Shown in pieces: positions 2,463 to 24,032 of a DNA stretch of 64,000 nucleotides (the first letter of the stretch is position 1; each line of letters opens with the position of its first letter). Location: positions 1,824,001 to 1,888,000 of the forward strand of contig CM000151.3 in the NCBI GenBank assembly GCA_000004695.1. Reading direction: 5' to 3'. A program made the translations under genes and the position numbers. Below the pieces are notes generated by a model. It did no database searches and was not told the origin of the DNA. It saw only the letters and a list, made by a program, of their open reading frames with translations. Source of the stretch: Dictyostelium discoideum (lineage: Eukaryota).

Positions 2463-3368
2463 ATGAAAATTAAATTAATTTTAGTTTTAATTGTTTTTTT
2501 AACAATAGTAAATGTTAACAATAGTATTGATTTATGTTTATCAAATCCAAAGAAAGCATTAGTTAATCAAGCATGCAAATATTCAACAGATTGTGAATAT
2601 CCATTATTTTGTGGTAGTGGTAATGGGTATGGTAAAAATGCGACATGTTCTAAAAACATTGAAACTGGTGGTAGTTGTGAATCAAATAATCAATGCACAC
2701 CGTGTAATGTTTGTTTTAATGCAAAATGTAAAGTCAAGCTTTATCTTGGTGATGCTTGCGATGAAAATAAGAGCTATTGTTCAAGTTCAGTTTGTATAAA
2801 AGGTAAATGCTCGATTCAAGGTGATGTTTGCACTGCCAATAATCAATGTAAATTCAATAACTACTGCAAATCTGGTAAATGCGTTCCATTAGAGAAAGAA
2901 GGTTCATCATGTGATAAAGACTCAAGTTGTTCATTAACCAATGCTTGTGTCGGTGGTAAATGTGTCACAAAGTATCAAAAACCATTAGGTGCTGTTTGTA
3001 ACTCGTCAAATGAATGTCAAGTATTCTCTGGCCACGTTTGTGGTGCCAATGGTAAGTGTTCAGTTTATAATCAACTATTATCAAAATGTAAAGAAAACTC
3101 TGATTGTGGTCCCAATGGTATGTGTATGTGCAAGAGTGAAACTGAAAATGTTTGTGTTGATTTATCAGTGGGTGCTCTTAAAAATGATAAATGTCCATCA
3201 CTACTCTCCTCTTTCTCCTCTTGTATGACTCGTGAACGTTGTACTGAGAATACTCCAACCGGTTGCCCAAAATGTTATCCAATTTTCATGTGTTATCAAT
3301 ATTCATGTTTCTATATGAACCAATTCATTAGATCAACCCAAAATTATTATAAATCATTTTGTTCTTAA
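2463..3368 (+). CDS. secreted cysteine-rich repeat protein (301 aa; signal peptide, ~40 Cys in repeated C..C..GKC modules)
   Basis: Intact ORF with an ATG start. The N-terminus MKIKLILVLIVFLTIVNVNNS is a signal peptide. Recurrent motifs include CKSGKC, CIKGKC and CVGGKC. It is a paralog of the minus-strand gene 24141..25067. Confidence 0.8.
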   Translation: MKIKLILVLIVFLTIVNVNNSIDLCLSNPKKALVNQACKYSTDCEYPLFCGSGNGYGKNATCSKNIETGGSCESNNQCTPCNVCFNAKCKVKLYLGDACDENKSYCSSSVCIKGKCSIQGDVCTANNQCKFNNYCKSGKCVPLEKEGSSCDKDSSCSLTNACVGGKCVTKYQKPLGAVCNSSNECQVFSGHVCGANGKCSVYNQLLSKCKENSDCGPNGMCMCKSETENVCVDLSVGALKNDKCPSLLSSFSSCMTRERCTENTPTGCPKCYPIFMCYQYSCFYMNQFIRSTQNYYKSFCS

Positions 3369-3686
3369 GTAGTACTAAAATAAAATTAAAAAAAAAAAAA
3401 AAAAAATACCTGTTTGTCCATAAAATTATATAAGAAAAAAAAAAAAAAATTAAAAAAAAAAAAAAAAAAAAGGTATTGAGTAATTCCTCCCAAAACCTCA
3501 AAACCTTAATAAAAATTTTTATTTTTTTTTTTTTTTTTTTTCACTTTTTCCAAAACAAATAATACATTTCACTAAATAATTTGTATCTCTTTATTTCTTT
3601 ATATTTTTTTTTTTTTTTTTTTTTTATTTCTTTATATTTTTTTTTTTTTTTATTTGTTTTTTCTTTTTTTTACAATTTTTTCAATA

Positions 3687-3732
<46 letters not shown>

Positions 3733-3872
3733 CTTTTTATATTTTTTGGAATATCACCAATAACAATAATTCATTATACATAAATAAAATTAAACACGCA
3801 ATAAATAAGAAAAATTAAAAATTAAAAATAATAAAAAAAAAGAACCAATATAATAAAAATAATAATAATAAT

Positions 3873-4290
3873 ATGTCATTATTAGTAGAAGAAAAGAATA
3901 AACTAAATGAAACTCAAGGCGATGTAGCAATGCATACTATCGATGATAAAAACGAAAACGATAATACAACATTAGAGACAACAACAGCAACAACAACAAC
4001 AGATATAATAGAAACAACAGAGGTAACAGAAACTACACCCTCAAAAGAAATAATAAAACAAGGTTTATCACCTTTACCACCTTTTCTGCCAATTGGTTCA
4101 ACTTGGGAAATGGTTGGCGATATGCTTCAAAATCAAATAAAATCATTATCAACATCATCTTCACCATTAACAACAACTACAACAATTACAACAACATCAA
4201 CTACTGATAAAAATAATAATATTGATAATAATATTAATAATAATAATAATATTGATAATAATAACAATAATATTGATAATAATAATATTG

Positions 4291-4380
<90 letters not shown>

Positions 4381-5867
4381 GTAATATTATTATTAATATT
4401 GATAATAATAATAATAATAATAATAATAATATTAATATTAACAATAATAGTGAACCTATGATAATCATGGATTCAAATAGTAATAATAGCAATAATAGTA
4501 GTAATAATAGTACATCACCATCGGAAGCAAATGATGATATAAAAAATAATAATAATAGTATTAATAATAATAATGATGGTAGCAATAGTAACAATAATAG
4601 CAATATCAATAATAATGAAAAAGCTTTTACTTTATTAAGTGAAACTTGTAAGTTCTTTTTCTTTCTTGTTAACAATATTGATACTATATATATATATATA
4701 TATATATATAAATATTAATTTATATATTATTAAATTTATTTCTAGATATGGATGTCTTTGGAATATTACCATCTAAAGACCCATTAGTTTTAGTGGTTTG
4801 TCATAAATGTTCAAAGCCTGTTAAAAAATCAAGATTCATTAATCATTTTGAAAATTGTTTAGGAACAGGTGGTAATAATAATTATTGTAATAGTAATAGT
4901 GGAGTTTTAGACAATACTAGTAGTGGTAATAGTACTACGGCAGCGGTAAATGGCGATACAACAACATCATCAGTAGTAAATGATTCAAATATAAATTCAT
5001 CAACAACCTTAACAGCACCAATTACACCAAATCCAGTGACTAATGCAAAAGGAAATAAATCAAATCCTTCTCCTGACCCAAAGAAAAAAGTAAATGCAGG
5101 TATAGGAAGAGGTAGACCAAAGAAAAAGGTTGATCCTCCTAAAATACCAGAAGTAATCACAACTCCAATTGTTGATTCAACCACCACTTCTACTTCTACT
5201 TCTACTTCTACTACTACTACTACTACTACTTCTACCCCTACAAATACAACCATTGAAAATCTATCACAATCTTCTTCTCAATCATCCTCACAATCATCTA
5301 ATAATCTAGATACACTTATAGCAACAAACAATCCCACCAACACCACTACCACCACAATAAATAGTACAGATGTATTAATACCGACAAATGCAACAACCAC
5401 ATCAACAACAACAGCAGCAGCACCAATAACACCAACAACAACAACAGTAACAACACAACCAACAGAACAACAAGTTGTAAAAAAAATGGGGGCAATGCAA
5501 CCATTAACAGCAAGAAAAAGGAACTATGATTCTTTGAAATCATCTTCGTCCTCTACACCAATTGTTCCAAGTACAAACAAACCTTCACTTGAAACTTGTC
5601 CTGAAGGTGATACACCATCAAAAAATACTTTAGATACTAATAATGATAGTACAACAACAACAACAACAACATCAGCAACAGCAACAACATCAGCAATCGC
5701 TTCTCCAGGAGCAACAGCAGCAACAGATACTAATACTACACCATCATCATCAACCACAAATGAACCAAGCAGTAATGTTAATAATTCTGAAGATTCTACT
5801 AAAATTGATAAAATGGAAATAGATGGCGATAATAATACTTCCGATAATAATAATAGCAATAATGGCA

Positions 5868-5924
<57 letters not shown>

Positions 5925-6007
5925 GTAGCAATGATAATAATAATAGCAATAATAATAATGATAATAATAATGATAATGATAAAAATATCAACAACAACAA
6001 TAATAAC

Positions 6008-6042
<35 letters not shown>

Positions 6043-6753
6043 TAGTAATAACAACAATAAAGAAGAAACTAAATTAGATACAAAATTAATTAATTCAATA
6101 GGTTGTAATGGTATAGTTACAATGGTAGTACCATTAGCATATAGAACTCTTAATTGTAGTATCATTAATGAGAATAAAAGATTTAAGAATTTATTTTCAC
6201 CTGAAAAAGTTAAAGTTTCATTAACATCTGAAGATGATACTGACGATTCAGATGATAATGATGGTGATGATGATACAACAATGATGATGACGAATATAAA
6301 TAATGAAAAGAAATCTTCAAATAAAAATAAAAATACCATTATTACACCATTAGGTATATCACCATTACTAATTAATGATATACTTTTAAATGCATCAATG
6401 AGAGCAAAAAATTATCAACAACAATTATTAATGCAACAGCAATTACAACAACAATTAAAACAACAACAAATACAGATTCAACAACAACAATTGATACTAC
6501 AACAACAAGCTCAACAACAAGCTCAACAAGCTCAACAACAAGCTCAACAACAAGCTCAACTACAAATGCAACAACAGCAAATACAACAACAACTGCAACA
6601 ACAGCAACAACAACAACAACAACAACAACAATGGACTTCTCAACAAACACATACAAATACAACACCAAATATGGTTTCAAAGATTTCAACAACGCCACAA
6701 ACTAGCAATAATAGTAATAAACCTACATATGCACCACCACCTCAATTCCAGAC

Positions 6754-6836
<83 letters not shown>

Positions 6837-8559
6837 GTAACACCAATATTAATAATAACAATAATAATACATCAATGAATCCACCAACACCTAATTCTTC
6901 AACATCAATGAATCCACCAACACCAAACACTTCAATGAATCCACCAACTCCAAACACTGTAAATACATCAATGAATCCACCAACTCCAACACCTGCAACA
7001 CCTTCAACACCTTCAACAATGATGAATCCTCCTACACCTGTTACAAATAGTATTTCAACATCATCTTCATCAGTACCAACCACAACCACAACTACAACAA
7101 CAACAACAACGGAAAAAGAGAGTAAAAAAGAATCTAAACCAAAGAAATTAACTAAAAAAGAAAAAGAAAAACTAGAGAAAGAAAAGGAAAAAGAAAAAGA
7201 AAAAGAAAAGAAAAAGAAATCTAAAAAAGATAAAGATAAAGAAAAAGATAAAGAAAAAGAAAAAGATTCTGAGAGTAAGTTTATTTTTTTAAAATTATTA
7301 ATTATTATTGTTTTAAGAATTGATTATTAATAATTTTTCCATTCATTTTTTATTTTATTTTTTATCCGAACACCCAAACAGAAAAATCCAATTCCAAAAA
7401 GAAAAAGGAAGATAAAAAACTTAGCAATAGTTCAGGCGCTGTTACAGCATCGATTATTAGCGAATCACCAACTGCAGCATCATTAACAACTTCAACAACA
7501 GCAACAGCAACAATGACAACAACAACACAACCACCTGTATTAGTGCCAAATCAACCTCCAACACCTAACCAATTGGTAAATTCAATGTCACCATCACCTT
7601 CACCAACAATACAACAACAAAATATTCTACCAACACAACAAATTCAACCACAAATTCAACCCCAACAACAAATACAATCACCCCAACAACAATTCCAACA
7701 ACCACAACCACATCAACAACAATTCCAACAACCACAACCACAACCACAACAACAACAAAATATATCACATTTACAACCTCCACAAATTTTACAACAACAA
7801 CAACAACAAATACAACAACAATTACAGCAACAACAATTACAACAACAACAGCTTCAACAACAATTACAACAATTACCTCCACAAATACTGCAACAATTAC
7901 AACAACAACAATTACAACAACAACAACAACAATTACAACAACAACAACAACAACAACTTCAAACACCACAAATTTTACTTCAAAATCAAAATCAAAATAT
8001 AAATATGAATTTAATTAATCCACAATTATTCCAAGCAAATCAAATGATGTCATCACCAAATATTGTTTATGCAAATTCTCCATTACCTCAAAACCAAAAT
8101 CAAAACCAACAAAATCAAAATCAAAATCAAAACCAACAACAAATATTAACTCAACAACAATTACAACAACAACAATTATTAAAACAACAACAGTTACAAC
8201 AACTTTACTATAGGCAATTAGCACAACAACAACAACAACAGCAACAGCAACAACAACAAAATAATACTCAATTAAATAATAGTGGAGGATTTCAACAACA
8301 ACAATTTGCAAATAATAACCTAAATATACCCCAACAACAAGTACCATCACCTCAAATTGGGCAACAACAACAACAACAACAATTACCTCTTGGAATTCAA
8401 CCTCCACCCCAAATAATACAAAATATGCAACAACAACAACAACTTCAACAACAACAATTACTACAACAACAATTACTACAACAACAATTATTGCAACAAC
8501 AGCAACTACAACAATTACAACAACAACAAAACAATAATAAACAATATATTCCACAATAA
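3873..8559 (+). CDS. three-exon gene encoding a ~1490-aa low-complexity nuclear protein with an Sgf11/ataxin-7-type C2HC zinc finger and an AT-hook; exons ~3873..4647, 4746..7274, 7382..8559
   Basis: Introns run from GTAAGT at 4648 to AG at 4745 and from GTAAGT at 7275 to AG at 7381. Both are phase 1 and AT-rich, and they join track ORFs 3873.., 4748..7330 and 7513..8559 in frame, as checked codon by codon. The zinc-finger motif is CHKCSKPVKKSRFINHFENC (C-x2-C-x12-H-x3-C with the SRF..H.E.C signature). The AT-hook is GRGRPKKK. The protein also carries poly-N, poly-T and poly-Q runs, TSMNPPTPN repeats and a KEKEKE tail. Confidence 0.7.
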
Positions 8560-8688: not shown

Positions 8689-10610
8689 TTAATTTGATTT
8701 TTCATGATCATAACCATAATCAATACTATTACCCAAAGTTGAGTTATTATTATTGTTATTATTATTAATAATTGGATTTGAAGAAGATGATAAATCTTTT
8801 TGAGTTACAACATCTAATTCTTTGGAATTAGCATTAGCATTATCATCAGTCATTGGAGTATCACCATTTAATTCATCCAAAACTGATTGATCAATTTCTT
8901 TGAATCTATAGGCAATAATGATAAAGATAAAGATGAATACAAACATTACAGAACCAAATAATAATGATAAAACATATTCTGGTAATTCAATTAATTCAAT
9001 TACAAAAGCATCAAACATATTACCAATGGAAACACAAATTAACCAACCTGCAATTACCAATGATTTCATAGAACGTGGTGAATTTGCATAGGCAAATTCT
9101 AAACCAGTGATTGATAATAAAACTTCAGCGGCAGTCAAGACAACATATTGTGGTATTTGTAAAGCGATATGTACAGATTCTGGTGGAGAGTTATCAATAT
9201 GAACTTGAATAATAGCTGAAATGTAAAATGCAATCACAGACAAAAACATACCGGTACCCATTCTACGAAGGAGTGTGAAATTAATCTTCTTTCTTTCCAA
9301 TGGACGATAAATACCATATTCAAAGATTGGTACGAAAATCATAACCAATAATGGATTAATACAATTGATAATTTCAGAATCAATTTCCCAACTTCCTAAA
9401 TGTCTATCCATAGAATTGGCTTGAATAGTCCAACGAGTACCAGTTTGATCATACAAAGCCCAGAAGAATGGTAATGGTACAAACACTGTTAAAACTCTTA
9501 ATACCAATTTCACTTGTTCAACAATTCTTGGTGAATATTTTAATTTGGCTCTGTCCAAGAAACTATTGTTATAGTAATGGTCATTGTATTTACTACCACG
9601 GAATGTTTTCTTTACACTTTCAGAGATACCGGTACCAACGATACAGAATGCAGTTGATAAAACGGATCCTTGTGGTTTACGTTTAACATATTGTTTATTA
9701 CCAACTAAATAAATTAAAATTGAAATAATTAATATACCAGCTGGAATTACAAATGCACACCAATAACCAACATTAGTTCTTAAAATTGGTGAAAGAATTG
9801 ATGAAAAGAATGATCCTAAATTTACACACCAATAAAATACTTGGAAAAGATTTTGAAGTAATTTCTTTTGATGTGGACCAAATTGATCACCACAAAATGA
9901 ACTTACAACTGGTTTAATACCACCTGTACCAATTGCAATACAAGTTAAACCAACAATTAAACCTAATTTTTTTTTTTTTTTTTAAAATAAATTTAATTAA
10001 TAAATTATTTTAATTTTTTAATTATTATTTTTTTTAAAATAGTATTTAAATATTTACCCCATGGTGATCTTTCACCTGGACTGTCACCAGTAATTCCTGG
10101 AATTGCAGTAATTGAAAAAATAGCAGCTCCAAAACAATATAAAATACTGAAATATAAAATTGTTTTGTATTTTCCTAAAACACCATCAGCAACATAAGCA
10201 CCAACAAGTGAACTTTTTTTTTTTTATAAAAAATAAATAAATATTAATAACTTTTTAATATTTTTTAAAAATTTAATGAAATTTACTTACAAAATATAAG
10301 CACCAGCATTAAAACCGTGACCAATTGAAGAAGCATTTTTTTCAGAATATCCCATGAAACTGATTAAATAATTTGTTAAAATACCTCTTAAAGCATAGTA
10401 TGAATACCTTTCACAAATTTCATTACCCATAATATATTTAATTGATGATGGAAAATGATTTTCATCCCCTCCATAAACAAAAACTTCATTATCAATACCT
10501 TCCATATCACCTTGTTTACCTTTAGATGAACCCTTTCCATCAATTGATGACCCTAAATTATCAATTGATGTTGATACACCAGAATTTGATGATTCTTCTT
10601 CTATCGCCAT
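8689..10610 (-). CDS. proton-dependent oligopeptide transporter (POT/PTR2 family), 3 exons: 10610..10291, 10212..10058, 9962..8689 (~582 aa)
   Basis: PTR2 signature 1 is GNEICERYSYYALRGIL. Exon 2 encodes GAYVADGVLGKYKTILYFSILY. Exon 3 encodes GTGGIKPVVSSFCGDQF and FYWCVNLGSFFSS. The donors are GTAAGT and GTAAAT, the introns are AT-rich (~78 and ~95 bp), and the phases are consistent. Confidence 0.85.
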
Positions 10611-11340: not shown

Positions 11341-11463
11341 TCCTCCTATATATATTTAAGATACACACACACACAAATTTTATACAAATAATTATTTCTC
11401 TTTATTAATTTTTAATATTATTATTTTTTCTCATATTATAATTTTAGATATCAACAATAAAAT

Positions 11464-12470
11464 ATGTCTACCACTGTTAATAATAATGATGCCTCTAGTA
11501 GTAGTACCTCTGCCTCTAATAGCGCTGAATCCTTTGATTTAAGAATGAAATCAATGGAGGATCAAATCAACAACCTTTCCTTAGCCTTTACAAGATTCAT
11601 GAAAGAACCTATGTTCTCTTCTAATACCAACTCACGTAGCCAACCTTCTCATGATAACTCTGACACCGAGAATGAACAAAGTGAAGATGAATCAAGTAAC
11701 AATGTCGATGTTCCAACCGATTATCAATTATCCGATACCTTACTTGGTCAGTACAAACATATGGTAAACAATAAAGGTTTACTCGTCGAAGAAGAATGTA
11801 TCCTCAAGAAAGATGAGATATCCGAATTGAATAAAGTATTCAACTTTCCATCTAACTTCCAAGTGAATGTCGCTCCATTCGGTACACCTGAAGGTATTAC
11901 TGTATCATCCAACGTCAAGAACAATGATACTGATTGTTGATTGTCGAAAAGCGAATCAACGATAGCTTGAAACCTTTGCTTCTCATGTCAAGTATGTTAT
12001 CATCTGATAGCTCTAATGTCGATGTAGAACTTATTAGTTACTTAACTCAGAGTGCAATCGTCTTAGCCGTTAACGCTCAAGCATCGCTTAGTCGTGTCCG
12101 TCGTAACAACATCGCTAAAGAAATCTATGGTTCTGAAGTACTCTTACCAATTAAGATCAAGGATACACCAAAGATGTTTGATGAAACTGAAACTGAACGT
12201 GTAAGAAAGCTAGCCAAGTCAATCAGAAAGAACAACGAAGCTAAACAATCATTGTTAAAATTGAATTATCATTCCAAGTCCAATGTCAAGAAATCAGTTA
12301 ACTCAAGTGGTAATAACACTACAGGAAACAGTAGTAATAGTAAATCCAGTAGTGGGAGTAATGGCCGATCTAACAACTTCAATGGATCACCAAGTAATGT
12401 TGCATCAGGTAGCAACAATACCAAGTCTGCCAACGGTACCAACAACCGTTTTCAGAAGAACAAGAAGTAA
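11464..12470 (+). CDS. DIRS-1 ORF1 (gag-like), present as two overlapping ORFs (11464..11940 frame 1; 11934..12470 frame 0)
   Basis: Two adjacent ORFs overlap by 7 nt. The products are S/N-rich with no recognisable domain. This may be one gene interrupted by a frameshift. Confidence 0.55.
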
Positions 12471-15384
12471 ACTTACCAGTAGGTGGACGTCTGTTCCACC
12501 ACAAACAAGTTTGGAAAGAATTGGGTCTTCCAAACTTTTGTCAAGAGGTCGTAAATGGATTAAAAGTCCATCTACTTCCAAACTTCAAGCCGATGCCAAA
12601 CCCAATTCCGATTTCAATTCCAGAGGGTCCAAAATCAGATTGCATCACAAAGGAAGTACAAGACTTGTTATTAGACGATGCCATCGAACAAGTACTTCCA
12701 AACCGTTATTCAAAGCGCGTTTTTTACTCCAACGTGTTTACGGTTCCAAAACCTGGAACGAATCTACATCGTCCAGTTCTCGATTTAAAAAGGTTAAACA
12801 CTTACATCAACAACCAATCATTCAAGATGGAAGGAATCAAGAATCTACCATCAATGGTCAAACAAGGTTATTACATGGTAAAACTCGATATCAAGAAAGC
12901 TTACCTCCACGTTTTAGTAGATCCGCAATACAGAGACTTATTTCGCTTCGTGTGGAAAGGTTCGCACTACCGTTGGAAAACAATGCCGTTCGGGTTATCG
13001 ACAGCTCCTCGTATCTTTACAATGTTGTTAAGACCTGTACTTCGAATGTTGAGAGATATCAACGTATCCGTCATCGCATACTTGGACGATCTATTAATCG
13101 TCGGTTCAACAAAAGAAGAATGTTTATCCAACCTCAAAAAGACAATGGACTTACTTGTCAAACTAGGTTTCAAGTTAAATCTAGAAAAGAGTGTTCTCGA
13201 ACCAACTCAATCAATTACATTTCTCGGATTACAAATCGATTCGGTATCAATGAAGCTTCTTGTTCCCAAAGAAAAGAAGAAAAGTGTCATCAAGGAAATA
13301 AGAAACTTTTTAAAACTAGATTGTTGCTCCCCAAGAAAGCTTGCTGGTTTAAAAGGAAAGCTAATCGCACTGAAAGATGCAGTCATCCCTTTCAGACTTT
13401 ACACTCGTCGAACAAACAAGTTTCACTCTCAGTGTCTGACTCTAGCCAATGGAGATTGGGATCAATCATTCCCCATTCCTCAAGAGGTCAAGTCAGAGAT
13501 TTCACATTGGTTAACAGTTCTAAACCAATGGAATGGAAAAGAAATCAGTCTGTTTCCAAGTTACGACTATGTTCTTACAACCGATGCCTCGGAATCAGGT
13601 GCAGGTGCCACACTCAAGAAAGGAAACAAGGTAATCAAAACTTGGTCATTCCAGTGGTCAACAACTCAATCAAACATGTCGTCAAATCGTCGAGAAATGC
13701 TCGCGCTGCTAATGGCCTATCAAGCGCTATGTCAGAAACTGAACAACTGCAAGCTGAAGATCCAAACCGACAATACTACCACTCTCTCATACATCAATCG
13801 CCAGGGTGGTCAGATACAAGATCTCTCAGTTCTGTTCGAACAACTTTGGAAACAATGCCTCAAGAAGAAAGTGAACTTGATTGGAGAGCATATTCCAGGA
13901 TTCTTCAATGTAAAAGCCGACCACCTCAGTCGTCTTTCAGAGATGAATCACAAATCATCGACCAGAGTAATCAAGAGTTACATCTGGCAACTGAAGAAGG
14001 AAGTGTTCAATCGCATCCAACTTCAATTCGGTCAAATACAGATGGATCTGTTCGCATCTCACCTCAACCATCAAACGAACAACTACTCAACAATAAGAAT
14101 GAATGCACTCAACCTCGATTGGAGTCAATGGAAGCAATGTCTGGCCTTTCCACCACCCATTCTTTTGCCTTCTATCCTGGAGAAGATGAACTCATCCAGT
14201 TCGAAGAAGGTTTCTATAATACTGATCTTCCCAATCTGGAGATCAGCAACTTGGTATCCGATGATTCAAGCACAAGTTCCTCGTCATCATCGTCACATGT
14301 TTCCTCAAGTACTGGGAACATTCCAAGAAGTATTGACCAAACAATCAGTAGAGTCGATACCAATCCAGATTCAACAACGTTGGAAGCTGGGGATTATTCA
14401 ACTTTCCAATCTCATGTAATGTCCTTCGCTCGTACAACAAATACAAAAACAGCTGAGCTGTTAATGAAGTCATGGGAACCTTCAACTCTCAAAGTATATA
14501 GCTCCAGTTATACAAGATTCCGCAATTTCTGTACTTTGAACTCTTTGAATCCAGCAAACATTACCTTAGTTGTTTTCATGGATTATCTTACACATCTATT
14601 CAAACACAAACCTCCGTTAGCTTTCTCAACTATTAACGGTCATCGATCTATGTTGAATCAGTTGTTACTCCTTAGGAATCAAACTGATATTGTTAATGAT
14701 CCATTCATTACAAGAATTATGACTGGTATTCACAAGTTGCGTCCTTCATCTGCAAAGTATAAAGAGATATGGGATGCAAATCAAGTATTCAAGCACTTAT
14801 CTACTATCAAAGTCATCCCCAAGTACACATACACTGCGCTATTAAACAAGACACTTGTACTCTGTAAAATGTTTGGTTTAGCAAGATCATCAGACTTGGT
14901 GAAGTGGTCGTTCAAAGGTCTCATTATTACTCCTGACTCAATCAAAGGTCCCGTTATTAATGCTAAAGAACAAAGAAGTGGTATTGTTTCAATCTTAGAA
15001 TTAACATCGTTAGATGATACTAACTCTCAAGTGTGCCCTGTTCGCCACCTTGCAACATACCTTAGAGCATCTAAAGGAAGAAGAAAGCCCCATTCGGGTG
15101 ACTCTGTCTTTATTAAGAATGAAGGTGAACCGCTCCAAGTTAATGATATTAATTCAATTGTACTATCAACACTCTCAAAGTCAGGTATTGATATTGTCAA
15201 GTTCAAATCTCACTCTACCCGTTCCGCTATGGCTTCTCTGCTGTTGTCCAATAACGTTCCGTTCCACGTTGTCAAAAAGATGGGTCGTTGGAAATCAAAC
15301 GATACTGTAGATACCTTCTACGATAAAAGAATCATTGGTGAAAAATCTGGTGGTTTCTTAAATACTGTCGTCCAAATTTCATAA
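12283..15384 (+). CDS. DIRS-1 long overlapping ORF (frame 1, 1033 codons). The C-terminal ~330 aa is a tyrosine recombinase (YR)
   Basis: The C-terminal segment from ~14420 onward reads ...MKSWEPSTLKVYSSSYTRFRNFC ... RHLATYL ... HSTRSAMASLLL ... GRWKSNDTVDTFY, which gives an R..H..R..Y catalytic arrangement. The N-terminal ~2.1 kb overlaps the RT ORF in another frame without stops, a known DIRS-1 peculiarity. Confidence 0.75.
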   Translation: MSRNQLTQVVITLQETVVIVNPVVGVMADLTTSMDHQVMLHQVATIPSLPTVPTTVFRRTRSKLTSRWTSVPPQTSLERIGSSKLLSRGRKWIKSPSTSKLQADAKPNSDFNSRGSKIRLHHKGSTRLVIRRCHRTSTSKPLFKARFLLQRVYGSKTWNESTSSSSRFKKVKHLHQQPIIQDGRNQESTINGQTRLLHGKTRYQESLPPRFSRSAIQRLISLRVERFALPLENNAVRVIDSSSYLYNVVKTCTSNVERYQRIRHRILGRSINRRFNKRRMFIQPQKDNGLTCQTRFQVKSRKECSRTNSINYISRITNRFGINEASCSQRKEEKCHQGNKKLFKTRLLLPKKACWFKRKANRTERCSHPFQTLHSSNKQVSLSVSDSSQWRLGSIIPHSSRGQVRDFTLVNSSKPMEWKRNQSVSKLRLCSYNRCLGIRCRCHTQERKQGNQNLVIPVVNNSIKHVVKSSRNARAANGLSSAMSETEQLQAEDPNRQYYHSLIHQSPGWSDTRSLSSVRTTLETMPQEESELDWRAYSRILQCKSRPPQSSFRDESQIIDQSNQELHLATEEGSVQSHPTSIRSNTDGSVRISPQPSNEQLLNNKNECTQPRLESMEAMSGLSTTHSFAFYPGEDELIQFEEGFYNTDLPNLEISNLVSDDSSTSSSSSSSHVSSSTGNIPRSIDQTISRVDTNPDSTTLEAGDYSTFQSHVMSFARTTNTKTAELLMKSWEPSTLKVYSSSYTRFRNFCTLNSLNPANITLVVFMDYLTHLFKHKPPLAFSTINGHRSMLNQLLLLRNQTDIVNDPFITRIMTGIHKLRPSSAKYKEIWDANQVFKHLSTIKVIPKYTYTALLNKTLVLCKMFGLARSSDLVKWSFKGLIITPDSIKGPVINAKEQRSGIVSILELTSLDDTNSQVCPVRHLATYLRASKGRRKPHSGDSVFIKNEGEPLQVNDINSIVLSTLSKSGIDIVKFKSHSTRSAMASLLLSNNVPFHVVKKMGRWKSNDTVDTFYDKRIIGEKSGGFLNTVVQIS
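12521..14419 (+). CDS. DIRS-1 pol: reverse transcriptase plus RNase H (frame 2). The track 'start' is TTG; the frame is open upstream into the end of ORF1
   Basis: RT motifs PQYRDLFRF, YLDDLLIVG and FLGL are present. RNase H motifs are VLTTDASESGAGATL, QTDNTT and NVKADHLSRL. The frame is offset by -1 from ORF1b, which suggests a gag-pol frameshift. Confidence 0.85.
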   Translation: MGLPNFCQEVVNGLKVHLLPNFKPMPNPIPISIPEGPKSDCITKEVQDLLLDDAIEQVLPNRYSKRVFYSNVFTVPKPGTNLHRPVLDLKRLNTYINNQSFKMEGIKNLPSMVKQGYYMVKLDIKKAYLHVLVDPQYRDLFRFVWKGSHYRWKTMPFGLSTAPRIFTMLLRPVLRMLRDINVSVIAYLDDLLIVGSTKEECLSNLKKTMDLLVKLGFKLNLEKSVLEPTQSITFLGLQIDSVSMKLLVPKEKKKSVIKEIRNFLKLDCCSPRKLAGLKGKLIALKDAVIPFRLYTRRTNKFHSQCLTLANGDWDQSFPIPQEVKSEISHWLTVLNQWNGKEISLFPSYDYVLTTDASESGAGATLKKGNKVIKTWSFQWSTTQSNMSSNRREMLALLMAYQALCQKLNNCKLKIQTDNTTTLSYINRQGGQIQDLSVLFEQLWKQCLKKKVNLIGEHIPGFFNVKADHLSRLSEMNHKSSTRVIKSYIWQLKKEVFNRIQLQFGQIQMDLFASHLNHQTNNYSTIRMNALNLDWSQWKQCLAFPPPILLPSILEKMNSSSSKKVSIILIFPIWRSATWYPMIQAQVPRHHRHMFPQVLGTFQEVLTKQSVESIPIQIQQRWKLGIIQLSNLM

Positions 15385-22157: not shown

Positions 22158-24032
22158 ATGAGTATTAATAGTGATTATAATAAAGAGAATAATAATATAT
22201 CACCATTAAATACTAGTAGTGAAAGAAGAAGTAGTTTAAGGAATAGTTTAAATAATAGCAGTAATAATAATAATAATAATGTAATAAATACACCAACAGC
22301 TAATTCAATTAATAGTAGTGGTAATTTTTCACCAAAAGAATTTGTATCAAATATAGATGGTGAGGAGATAATTTATCAAAATCAAAGTGTAGAGTATAAA
22401 CAAAGATTATGTACCATTCAAATTAAACAATCTACATTAATCATTAAATTCAATGAAAAGGGTGGTTTCACTAAATATTTAGTATCAGATACGATAGTTG
22501 GATCAGAGATAACCAATGAATCCACCAATGAATATACAATCTACTCATGTGTAATGAATACATTGGATGTGACAAAGGAAACCAGAAGAAGAAAGCAATT
22601 CTCATTAAGATTTAGAGACAGATTCGAATTGAATCAATTCAATGACAAGTTTGTAGAGGCTTTCTTAGACACCCTTCCAATGGGCAATCCAAGGGAGAGA
22701 AGAATCAGGGTTATCCTAAATCCAAAATCTGGTAAGAAAATGTCGGATTCCATCTTTAAAGATATCAATGAGCTCTTTAAAGATTCGAAAATATTCGTAA
22801 AGAAAACCGTTACAAAAGGACCTGACCATGCGAAAAAGATTGGCTATAAATTCAACCTCAAGAAATACGATACCATAGTTTTCATATCTGGTGATGGTTT
22901 ATTCCACGAGTTTATCAATGGTCTTTTGAGTAGAACCGACTTTGAACAAGCTAGAAAGATACCATTGGCTTTGATCCCAGGTGGCACTGGTAATGGCATT
23001 GCTTGTTCCATCGGTTTACAAGATCCAATGTCTTGTGCATTAGCAGTTATACGTGGTTTCACTAAACCATTAGATGTTAGTGTAATTCAACAAGGTGATA
23101 AAAAATGGTGTTCAATCTTGTCTCTAACTTGGGGTATAGTATCCGATGTTGATATAGAATCTGAAAAGTATCGTGCCTTGGGTGATGTTCGTCTAATCTT
23201 GGGTGCAGCATTACGTATTCTAAACCTACGTATCTATCGTGGCAAAATTTGGTATTTACCAGCTTTAGAATTAAATAAAACAGAAATTGCTAAAATTCCA
23301 AAATGTTCTTATTCATGTGAAATTTGTGAAAGTGATAATCCAATTTCAACAATTGAAAATGTTATATCTCAACAACAACAAAATAATACAACAACAAATC
23401 AATTAAGACGTTCATCTTTAAATAATAGTAGTAATGGATTTTCACCAAAATTAAATACTAGTGGTAGTATTTCAAATGGAAATGATGATGAATTAAGATC
23501 AATGTTTTCAAAAGAAGAGAATATAAAGATTGAAAATGAAATACATGATCACCAAAATGATGATGTTTTACCATTACTTAAATCATCAAGTGATCAACAT
23601 TTCATTGTTCCACCAACTAAATTACCAAATCAACAATTCTTAAAAGAGACAAAAGAGGAGTTATTTGCAAAAGGTTGGAAAGTTTTAGAAGGTGAATTCA
23701 TTGGTATCGTCGCAAGTACAGTATCCCATTTAGCTTCAGATTTCATCGCATCTCCAACTGCACATCTTTCTGATGGTTTAATTGATTTAGTAGTAATTAA
23801 TAATAATAAGAAATTTAGTAAAGCAGGTTTATTATCAGTTTTAACAGAATCCTCAACTGGTGCTCATGTAAAGAGTGATCTCATTGATCAATATAAGGTT
23901 CAAGCTATGATCTTAGAACCAAGTAATGATAGAGAAGGTATTATTGCTGTAGATGGTGAATTAATCTCTTATGGTCGTACTTCAATGGAATGTATGAGAG
24001 CTTGTATTAATTTAATTTGTAGAACTTATTAA
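22158..24032 (+). CDS. sphingosine kinase-type lipid kinase (DAGK catalytic-domain family), 624 aa
   Basis: [13 protein letters not shown] is the ATP-binding N.SG.G-like motif. [15 protein letters not shown] and [13 protein letters not shown] are conserved in the SphK/CERK/DAGK catalytic domain. N/S-rich inserts are typical for Dictyostelium. Confidence 0.8.

Follow-up and report, generated by a model that had tools for sequence, protein, structure and literature searches.

A candidate ataxin-7/Sgf73-like adaptor of the SAGA deubiquitinase module in Dictyostelium discoideum

A 64-kb stretch of Dictyostelium discoideum DNA (contig CM000151.3, positions 1,824,001 to 1,888,000 of the forward strand; hereafter the window, to which positions refer unless a locus is named) contains a gene for a 1493-residue, asparagine- and glutamine-rich protein, which carries a zinc finger of the type known from Sgf11 and ataxin-7. 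The finger is real and conserved. As judged from profile comparisons, the finger and the segment directly upstream of it more likely belong to the ataxin-7-type branch than to the Sgf11/ATXN7L3 branch. We consider it probable, at about 0.6, that the protein is the D. discoideum ataxin-7/Sgf73-like adaptor of the histone-H2B deubiquitinase (DUB) module of SAGA, and it would then be incorporated into the DUB module or SAGA. On this reading it joins a known family as an ordinary member that had not been characterised before; it lacks the SCA7 domain and has gained an AT-hook-like motif. The following features carry the argument.

4038..4145, + strand: conserved island close to the N-terminus (N-island), residues 56-91, PSKEIIKQGLSPLPPFLPIGSTWEMVGDMLQNQIKS; proposed match to ATXN7 ~83-97 (LGQSW) and Sgf73 ~28-40 (NDSWKSL)
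4748..4798, + strand: pre-finger flank, residues 260-276, MDVFGILPSKDPLVLVV; ataxin-7-type block EDM-x-[IV]FG-x2-P-x2-DPL-x-LVV
4799..4858, + strand: C2HC zinc finger, residues 277-296, CHKCSKPVKKSRFINHFENC; predicted ligands C277, C280, H292 and C296
5096..5131, + strand: motif resembling an AT-hook and a nuclear-localisation signal, residues 376-387, AGIGRGRPKKKV; core GRGRPKKK at residues 379-386, 5105-5128

The original prediction, which was read from the letters of the window alone, had placed an Sgf11/ataxin-7-type C2HC finger at the start of exon 2 of a protein of about 1490 residues. Both the finger and its place are borne out, as exon 2 begins at 4746. The spacing C-x2-C-x11-H-x3-C is found at this single site in the six frames of the window, and 6e-7 such sites are expected from the composition of the protein. 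The Pfam model PF08209 (Sgf11) matches with an E-value of 2.4e-7 and 30.6 bits in the full protein, and with 36.3 bits in the segment alone; the gathering cut-off of this model is 26.4 bits. The Pfam model of SCA7 gave no match. The spacing of the ligands is invariant or nearly so in the 22 homologues described below, in which the first two cysteines and the histidine are always present and the last cysteine is kept in at least 90%. Over flank and finger 37 of 38 residues are identical in D. dimigraforme and all 38 in D. citrinum, with the ligands kept in both species. Neither of the two outcomes that would have spoken against the original prediction, a missing profile match or an unconserved spacing, was observed. 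Five residues of the finger are basic (K279, K282, K285, K286 and R288). In the precomputed table of a public D. discoideum assembly no Pfam family is recorded for the 1493-residue product, though our own hmmscan puts Sgf11 above the threshold.

The gene model comprises three exons.

3873..4647, + strand: exon 1, residues 1-258 plus one base of codon 259; start codon ATG at 3873, GTAAGT donor at 4648
4648..4745, + strand: intron 1, 98 nucleotides, GTAAGT...TAG, phase 1; the frames of exons 1 and 2 join without a stop
4746..7274, + strand: exon 2, residues 259-1101
7275..7381, + strand: intron 2, 107 nucleotides, GTAAGT...CAG, phase 1
7382..8559, + strand: exon 3, residues 1102-1493, rich in glutamine, proline and asparagine; TAA stop at 8557-8559

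Exon 1 encodes the N-island and a spacer of about 150 residues consisting of poly-asparagine/threonine (poly-N/T). The spliced coding sequence of 4482 nucleotides is translated into 1493 residues with one terminal stop. In another D. discoideum assembly, annotated independently, a gene with a span of 4687 nucleotides and the same 1493-residue product lies directly downstream of DDB_G0272530, so that the length first proposed agrees with the spliced model as well as with this annotation. The protein had also been described as almost entirely low complexity. That fits its content of asparagine, glutamine, threonine and serine (56% together), but it is slightly overstated in view of the conserved non-repetitive islands at residues 56-91, 505-527, 716-755 and 789-818. 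Seven cysteines, six histidines and nine arginines are present in the 1493 residues. In the intergenic region upstream of the ATG (3520-3740) oligo(T) runs of up to about 50 T occur.

The orthologous loci of two further species were located via the neighbouring gene.

D. discoideum itself, other assembly, L002 11394-16080: 1493 residues
D. dimigraforme, L004 11308-15834: 1461 residues
D. citrinum, L005 11498-16652: 1661 residues

In D. citrinum one reading frame runs on without a stop where intron 1 would lie, and the call of 1661 residues may therefore hold a retained intron. The homopolymer tracts grow and shrink freely between these close species while about 100 residues are fixed. Only in N-island, finger and basic motif is the constraint this tight. 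The N-island is identical at 36 of 36 positions in both species, with eight synonymous and no non-synonymous codon changes. For residues 366-392, which surround the basic motif, the identity amounts to 26 of 27 in D. dimigraforme and 27 of 27 in D. citrinum (ten synonymous changes, one non-synonymous). In total 31 synonymous and two non-synonymous differences to the two species are found in N-island, finger and AT-hook, and these three segments are under purifying selection.

These numbers also bear on the trivial explanation that the Cys/His pattern and the RGRP of the basic motif arose by chance in a low-complexity reading frame, or that the gene model is wrong. The 56% of N, Q, T and S could be taken as a hint in that direction, as could the result for two protein collections, in which neither the spliced model nor its dictyostelid orthologues have an exact or close match while the proteins of the neighbouring genes are present there. 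This explanation is refuted by the composition, from which 6e-7 sites are expected for the finger and 7.5e-5 for RGRP, by the Pfam match (E 2.4e-7) and homologues with E-values down to 8e-7, by the 31 synonymous against two non-synonymous changes in the three islands, and by the independent annotation with an identical 1493-residue product. We give it practically no weight.

An exhaustive HMMER search of 1.84 billion protein representatives revealed 25 matches at E <=1e-3. Three were set aside as repeat artefacts, which leaves 22 genuine homologues with E-values down to 8e-7. These fall into two groups. Group A consists of long, ataxin-7-type proteins (250-510 residues in the complete members) with the pattern [ED][ED]DM[DH][VIL][FY]G-x-x-P-x-x-DPL-x-LV-x-C-x-x-C-x-K-x-[VI]K-x-S-[RQ]-[FY]-x-x-H-x-E-x-C. 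Its members originate from Physarum polycephalum (65% identity) and Gocevia fonbrunei, both Amoebozoa, from the oomycete Aphanomyces, from GC-rich eukaryotes and from flowering plants, and are labelled in their sources only as 'Sgf11 ... protein' or 'SCA7 domain-containing protein'. Group B contains short, Sgf11-type proteins of 113-249 residues, in which the pattern DI[WY]G-x-x-PSKEP ... C-x-x-C-x-R-x-VS-x-x-RFAPHLDKCMGLG is located near the C-terminus, which is the classical Sgf11 arrangement. The closest relatives found are the long proteins from Physarum, Gocevia, Aphanomyces and flowering plants (P0003, P0010, P0009, P0020, P0024), with 52-65% identity over flank and finger. They are free of Pfam SCA7 matches and, with 250-510 residues, much shorter than the 1493 residues of the Dictyostelium protein. 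Two metagenome scans gave no relatives. P0014, an N-rich Sgf11-type protein, was considered as a dictyostelid Sgf11 and was ruled out, since its contig has 42-50% GC.

Profiles of both groups were built leaving the Dictyostelium sequence out, and the scores were as follows.

Dictyostelium finger region: group A 77.4 bits, group B 59.8 bits
Human ATXN7 (query confirmed residue by residue against 7KTR): group A 42.1 bits, group B 16.4 bits
Human ATXN7L3 (query agreeing with 2KKT at 80 of 81 positions, a check that lies outside the finger region): group A 27.5 bits, group B 50.1 bits
Yeast Sgf11: group A 21.1 bits, group B 36.3 bits

As ATXN7 prefers the first profile and ATXN7L3 and yeast Sgf11 prefer the second, group A represents the ataxin-7-type branch and group B the Sgf11-type branch. 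Sub-block profiles indicate where the preference of the Dictyostelium sequence is located. The flank alone scores 35.1 bits with group A and 11.4 with group B, and the finger core 42.2 and 34.2, which is only moderately in favour of A. The flank was aligned by phmmer to residues 133-149 of human ATXN7 (MPIFGFCPAHDDFYLVV). When the single sequence was searched against PDB, human ATXN7 133-168 was found with an E-value of 1.3e-3, followed by yeast Sgf73 with 3e-3, and yeast Sgf11 appeared only at 0.2. With the group A profile, ATXN7 is found in PDB at 1.1e-8 and yeast Sgf11 at 4.2e-4. The results for flank and finger thus point to an Sgf73/ATXN7-like subunit more than to Sgf11. The original prediction had cautiously named a SAGA DUB-module component as one possibility; the profiles and the flank support this and refine it in the direction of Sgf73/ATXN7.

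A direct comparison with block I of human ATXN7 and the yeast Sgf73 finger (PDB 7KTR chain N; 3M99/3MHH/2LO3) shows flank and finger in collinear order, with MDVFGILPSKDPLVLVVCHKC...H.E in Dictyostelium and MPIFGFCPAHDDFYLVVCNDC...H.E in ATXN7. The yeast Sgf73 finger has C-x-K-C-x-K-P and H-x-E-N in common with the Dictyostelium finger. Like the Dictyostelium protein and Sgf73, ATXN7 is a long protein with a mostly disordered remainder, and it also contains a polyglutamine tract. The fourth ligand differs, as ATXN7 has H-x4-H whereas the Dictyostelium finger has H-x3-C as in Sgf11. In contrast to ATXN7 and Sgf73 the Dictyostelium protein is devoid of SCA7 and of a detectable equivalent of the ATXN7 anchor 509-552, and it contains the poly-N/T insertion of about 150 residues and the AT-hook-like motif after the finger.

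A further, weak resemblance to ATXN7 was noticed in the N-island. Local alignments of this island (PIGSTWEMVGDML) select collinear segments in Physarum (PIGSKWSDLSDQL, P=0.009), in Gocevia (VGSDWKSFGLQL) and in ATXN7 83-97 (PLPSPEVMLGQSWNL, P=0.03). The same G-x-x-W motif is chosen if Physarum is compared with Gocevia (P=0.006) and Gocevia with ATXN7. Physarum has this G-x-x-W island about 40 residues upstream of the finger, as has ATXN7; in Dictyostelium the poly-N/T insertion intervenes. Because profile searches of PDB gave no extension into the N-island, we only infer that it corresponds to the pre-finger segment of ATXN7/Sgf73 which packs into the DUB module.

Several points weigh against an ataxin-7-like adaptor. 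The similarity of the N-island to ATXN7 is weak (P ~0.03). Fungal Sgf73 finger cores are poorly separated by the group A and B profiles, and the classification therefore depends mainly on human ATXN7. Within group A, the Dictyostelium finger core is the most Sgf11-like one (PSKDP, SRF, CLGTGG, H-x3-C). An AlphaFold2 (AF2) model, for which an alignment of 23 sequences was used as input, folds the finger into a beta-hairpin and a helix (beta-beta-alpha) with a predicted local confidence (pLDDT) of 79-86 in the core, and this model lies closer to the Sgf11 finger, with 0.5 A over 25 residues, whereas 2.5 A over 28 residues were obtained for the Sgf73 finger. In favour of a DUB-module subunit, a Foldseek search of 350,542 PDB chains led to the yeast SAGA DUB module in 19 of the 20 top matches, all of them to Sgf11 or Sgf73, with root mean square deviations of 0.5-1.7 A for Sgf11 and about 2.5 A (up to 2.6 A) for Sgf73 chains; the E-values of 0.4-1.4 are not significant because the domain is so small. 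The SCA7 domain, after which the ataxin-7 family is named, has no Pfam match even at E-values up to 10. Its zinc signature C-x9-10-C-x5-C-x2-H does not occur in any of the six frames of the window, and the seven cysteines and six histidines of the protein are too few for it and none is suitably placed. For these reasons an SCA7 domain cannot exist in the finger protein. Neither to SCA7 nor to the core-anchor segment of ATXN7 was a significant match obtained. In a literature search, no publication dealing with a SAGA DUB module, Sgf11, ataxin-7 or SCA7 of Dictyostelium came up.

The yeast Sgf11 finger binds the nucleosome acidic patch and activates Ubp8, and the Dictyostelium finger would do the same if the protein were an Sgf11/ATXN7L3 orthologue inflated by low-complexity insertions. 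Such an assignment could refer to the Pfam model above threshold, which bears the name Sgf11, to the 59.8 bits on the Sgf11-type profile, the top value among the long-protein group, to the PSK[DE]P, SRF and C-L-G-x-G-G features, to the five basic finger residues and to the AF2 model, which lies on the Sgf11 finger at 0.5 A. Indeed the Sgf11/ATXN7L3 finger (PF08209; PDB 2LO2, 3MHH chain C) has the same C-x2-C-x11-H-x3-C spacing, the SRF..H.E.C-L-G core and a basic surface in common with the Dictyostelium finger and gives the best superposition (0.5-1.7 A). However, the ATXN7-type profile scores 17.6 bits more than the Sgf11-type one in total and 23.7 bits more for the flank, the PDB profile search gives 1e-8 for ATXN7 against 4e-4 for Sgf11, and every one of the nearest relatives is a long protein of the ATXN7 type. 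Sgf11 and ATXN7L3 are small proteins with an N-terminal helix that binds Sus1/ENY2 and with the finger near the C-terminus, as in the Sgf11-type hits of 113-249 residues. Here the finger occupies residues 277-296 of 1493, the flank is unlike theirs, and the N-terminus is similar to ATXN7 83-97 and unlike the Sgf11 helix. We therefore regard an inflated Sgf11 as unlikely.

Three further conserved islands lie downstream of the finger.

5483..5551, + strand: island KMGAMQPLTARKRNYDSLKSSSS, residues 505-527; 23 of 23 identical in D. citrinum, conserved in D. dimigraforme save for an indel of one residue
6116..6235, + strand: island VTMVVPLAYRTLNCSIINENKRFKNLFSPEKVKVSLTSED, residues 716-755; 35-37 of 40 identical in the two orthologues; candidate SAGA-core anchor
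6335..6424, + strand: island TIITPLGISPLLINDILLNASMRAKNYQQQ, residues 789-818; 25-27 of 30 identical in the two orthologues

The last two islands are less constrained than the N-terminal segments, with 19 synonymous and 16 non-synonymous differences. For residues 789-818 neither a Pfam match nor a meaningful PDB match was obtained. ATXN7 is documented as the anchor of the DUB module, and its residues 509-552 thread the SAGA core (PMC9681738, PMC8660637). In plants, Gocevia and other members of group A a motif PLAT[KR]IYYSQRNNRLRSAL is present, whose best match within ATXN7 175-892 is located at 538-550 and hence inside this segment; 5 of 1000 shuffled sequences reach its score, and hhalign gives an E-value of 0.079. 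Profiles of the motif searched against PDB returned nothing beyond the seeded ATXN7 sequence. The PLAYR in residues 716-755 of the Dictyostelium protein is reminiscent of PLAT[KR], and the match is not significant; at most a vestige of the PLAT[KR]IYY..R..RLR motif of plants and Gocevia is left in Dictyostelium. An equivalent of the core anchor (block III, 509-552) at residues 716-745 is not supported, as no HMMER domain was found and hhalign aligned VVPLAYR alone (P 0.21). Pairwise tests of this stretch were not significant except with one plant sequence (P 0.013). A degenerate SCA7 at residues 712-732 (C-x10-A-x5-C-x2-I) was discarded: it has no significant similarity to the SCA7 of ATXN7 or Sgf73 (P 0.55 and 0.74), and C712 is deleted in D. 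dimigraforme. For residues 690-835 (6038-6475) phmmer proposed IFT88 297-368 in PDB with an E-value of 1.8e-4, which we judged to be compositional and due to the Asp-rich acidic run SEDDTDDSDDNDGDDD.

The basic motif is the third strongly conserved segment. An AT-hook about 90 residues after the finger had been predicted. GRGRPKKK is indeed present in the context GIGRGRPKKKV, 83 residues past the last finger ligand, and it is conserved under purifying selection; as an AT-hook it stays below the Pfam cut-off. AT_hook (PF02178) is the sole family match on the peptide and reaches 12.8 bits (E 0.12), with a cut-off of 17.4 bits. The motif has the G-R-G-R-P core and flanking lysines in common with the HMGA-type AT-hook, but it occurs as a single copy. 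RGRP is found once in the six frames of the window and holds two of the nine arginines of the protein. At the collinear position after the finger the plant proteins of group A contain a basic motif GG-x-G-x-R-[KR]-P-P-R-K (GGIGHRRPPRK), and Physarum and Gocevia have KRK/PKRP clusters there, whereas the RGRP core is restricted to Dictyostelium among the long relatives. PKKKV also fits the form of a classical monopartite nuclear-localisation signal. Since basic motifs are found at the same place in plants, Physarum and Gocevia, the ancestral element may have been a basic patch of the nuclear-localisation type which turned into an RGRP AT-hook in Dictyostelium. A contact of GRGRPKKK with DNA is suggested by its resemblance to AT-hooks.

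Long Q/N-rich tails like that of the finger protein are typical of Dictyostelium transcription regulators. Together with the absence of SCA7 and of a demonstrable core anchor, and with an AT-hook-like motif under purifying selection, this could fit a finger that is used outside SAGA, either in a free-standing DUB-module adaptor as proposed for plants or in an AT-hook/low-complexity regulator unrelated to deubiquitination. For Arabidopsis, DUB modules acting apart from SAGA have been discussed (PMC6128693). On the other hand, all characterised proteins that match the finger significantly in sequence or match its fold are subunits of the SAGA DUB module, and the arrangement of N-island and finger mirrors the DUB-binding N-terminus of ATXN7 and Sgf73. 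A role outside SAGA is thus rather improbable in our opinion, and we prefer the ataxin-7/Sgf73-like adaptor.

In yeast and humans the finger of Sgf73/ATXN7 lies against the Ubp8/USP22 protease and helps to keep it in the active form, as known from crystal structures of the yeast DUB module. For the Dictyostelium adaptor we propose that the N-island (residues 56-91) and the flank with the finger (residues 260-299) would insert together into the DUB module; between these two segments lies a poly-N/T loop that is about 150 residues long and lineage-specific. GRGRPKKK would contribute by touching the minor groove of AT-rich DNA, by acting as a nuclear-import signal, or in both ways. What remains of the protein may serve as a long disordered tether, whose few conserved islands would fasten the module to the SAGA core. 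With this protein, an amoeba amenable to genetics offers a concrete candidate for the link between SAGA and H2B deubiquitination, and the approximately 100 constrained residues define a minimal construct for testing.

The homologues from flowering plants offer a lead of their own. Five eudicot proteins of 250-430 residues (P0011, P0012, P0019, P0020, P0024), for example from Quillaja saponaria and Turnera subulata, contain the ataxin-7-type flank and finger. Their motif PLATKIYYSQRNNRLRSAL has its best match in human ATXN7 at 538-550, within the core-threading segment 509-552; in yeast Sgf73 no match was found. In the plant literature it is stated that angiosperms have no Sgf73/ATXN7 (among others PMC6128693). 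These eudicot long finger proteins may be the overlooked angiosperm counterpart of Sgf73/ATXN7. If they are true orthologues, the attachment of the DUB module to SAGA outside animals and fungi becomes a testable question.

As a wider and more speculative reading, the Amoebozoa, oomycetes and flowering plants could share a widespread and so far overlooked branch of ataxin-7-like proteins that lack SCA7, which would represent the true Sgf73/ATXN7 of non-opisthokonts including the 'missing' Sgf73 of angiosperms. The Dictyostelium finger would then be a hybrid of an ATXN7-type flank and an Sgf11-type core, with an AT-hook replacing the chromatin contact of SCA7. We mention this possibility with reserve. 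In its extreme version the Dictyostelium protein may serve as Sgf11 and as Sgf73 at once.

The window has a G+C content of 23%. Two of its single-exon open reading frames, at 2463-3368 and 22158-24032, match proteins of strain AX4 exactly and place it in chromosomal DNA of D. discoideum AX4, on chromosome 2. Besides the finger gene it contains the following features.

1599-1672, + strand: tRNA-Gln (anticodon TTG), upstream of DDB_G0272530
2463-3368: open reading frame with an exact match to DDB_G0272530 (XP_645118.1), the upstream neighbour
8689-10610, - strand: convergent gene for a peptide transporter of the PTR2/POT family (MFS_1 and PTR2 Pfam matches in the orthologous loci); its stop and that of the finger gene are about 130 nucleotides apart
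~11445-15384, + strand: region beyond the transporter, corresponding to a gene of the other D. discoideum assembly (L002 18966-20906) with Pfam matches to reverse transcriptase, RNase H and tyrosine recombinase (Phage_integrase)
22158-24032: open reading frame with an exact match to sphingosine kinase A (XP_645126.1)

The combination of reverse transcriptase, RNase H and tyrosine recombinase indicates that the gene beyond the transporter belongs to a DIRS-type retrotransposon. The position of this retrotransposon-like gene corresponds to an open reading frame of 1033 residues at 12283-15384.

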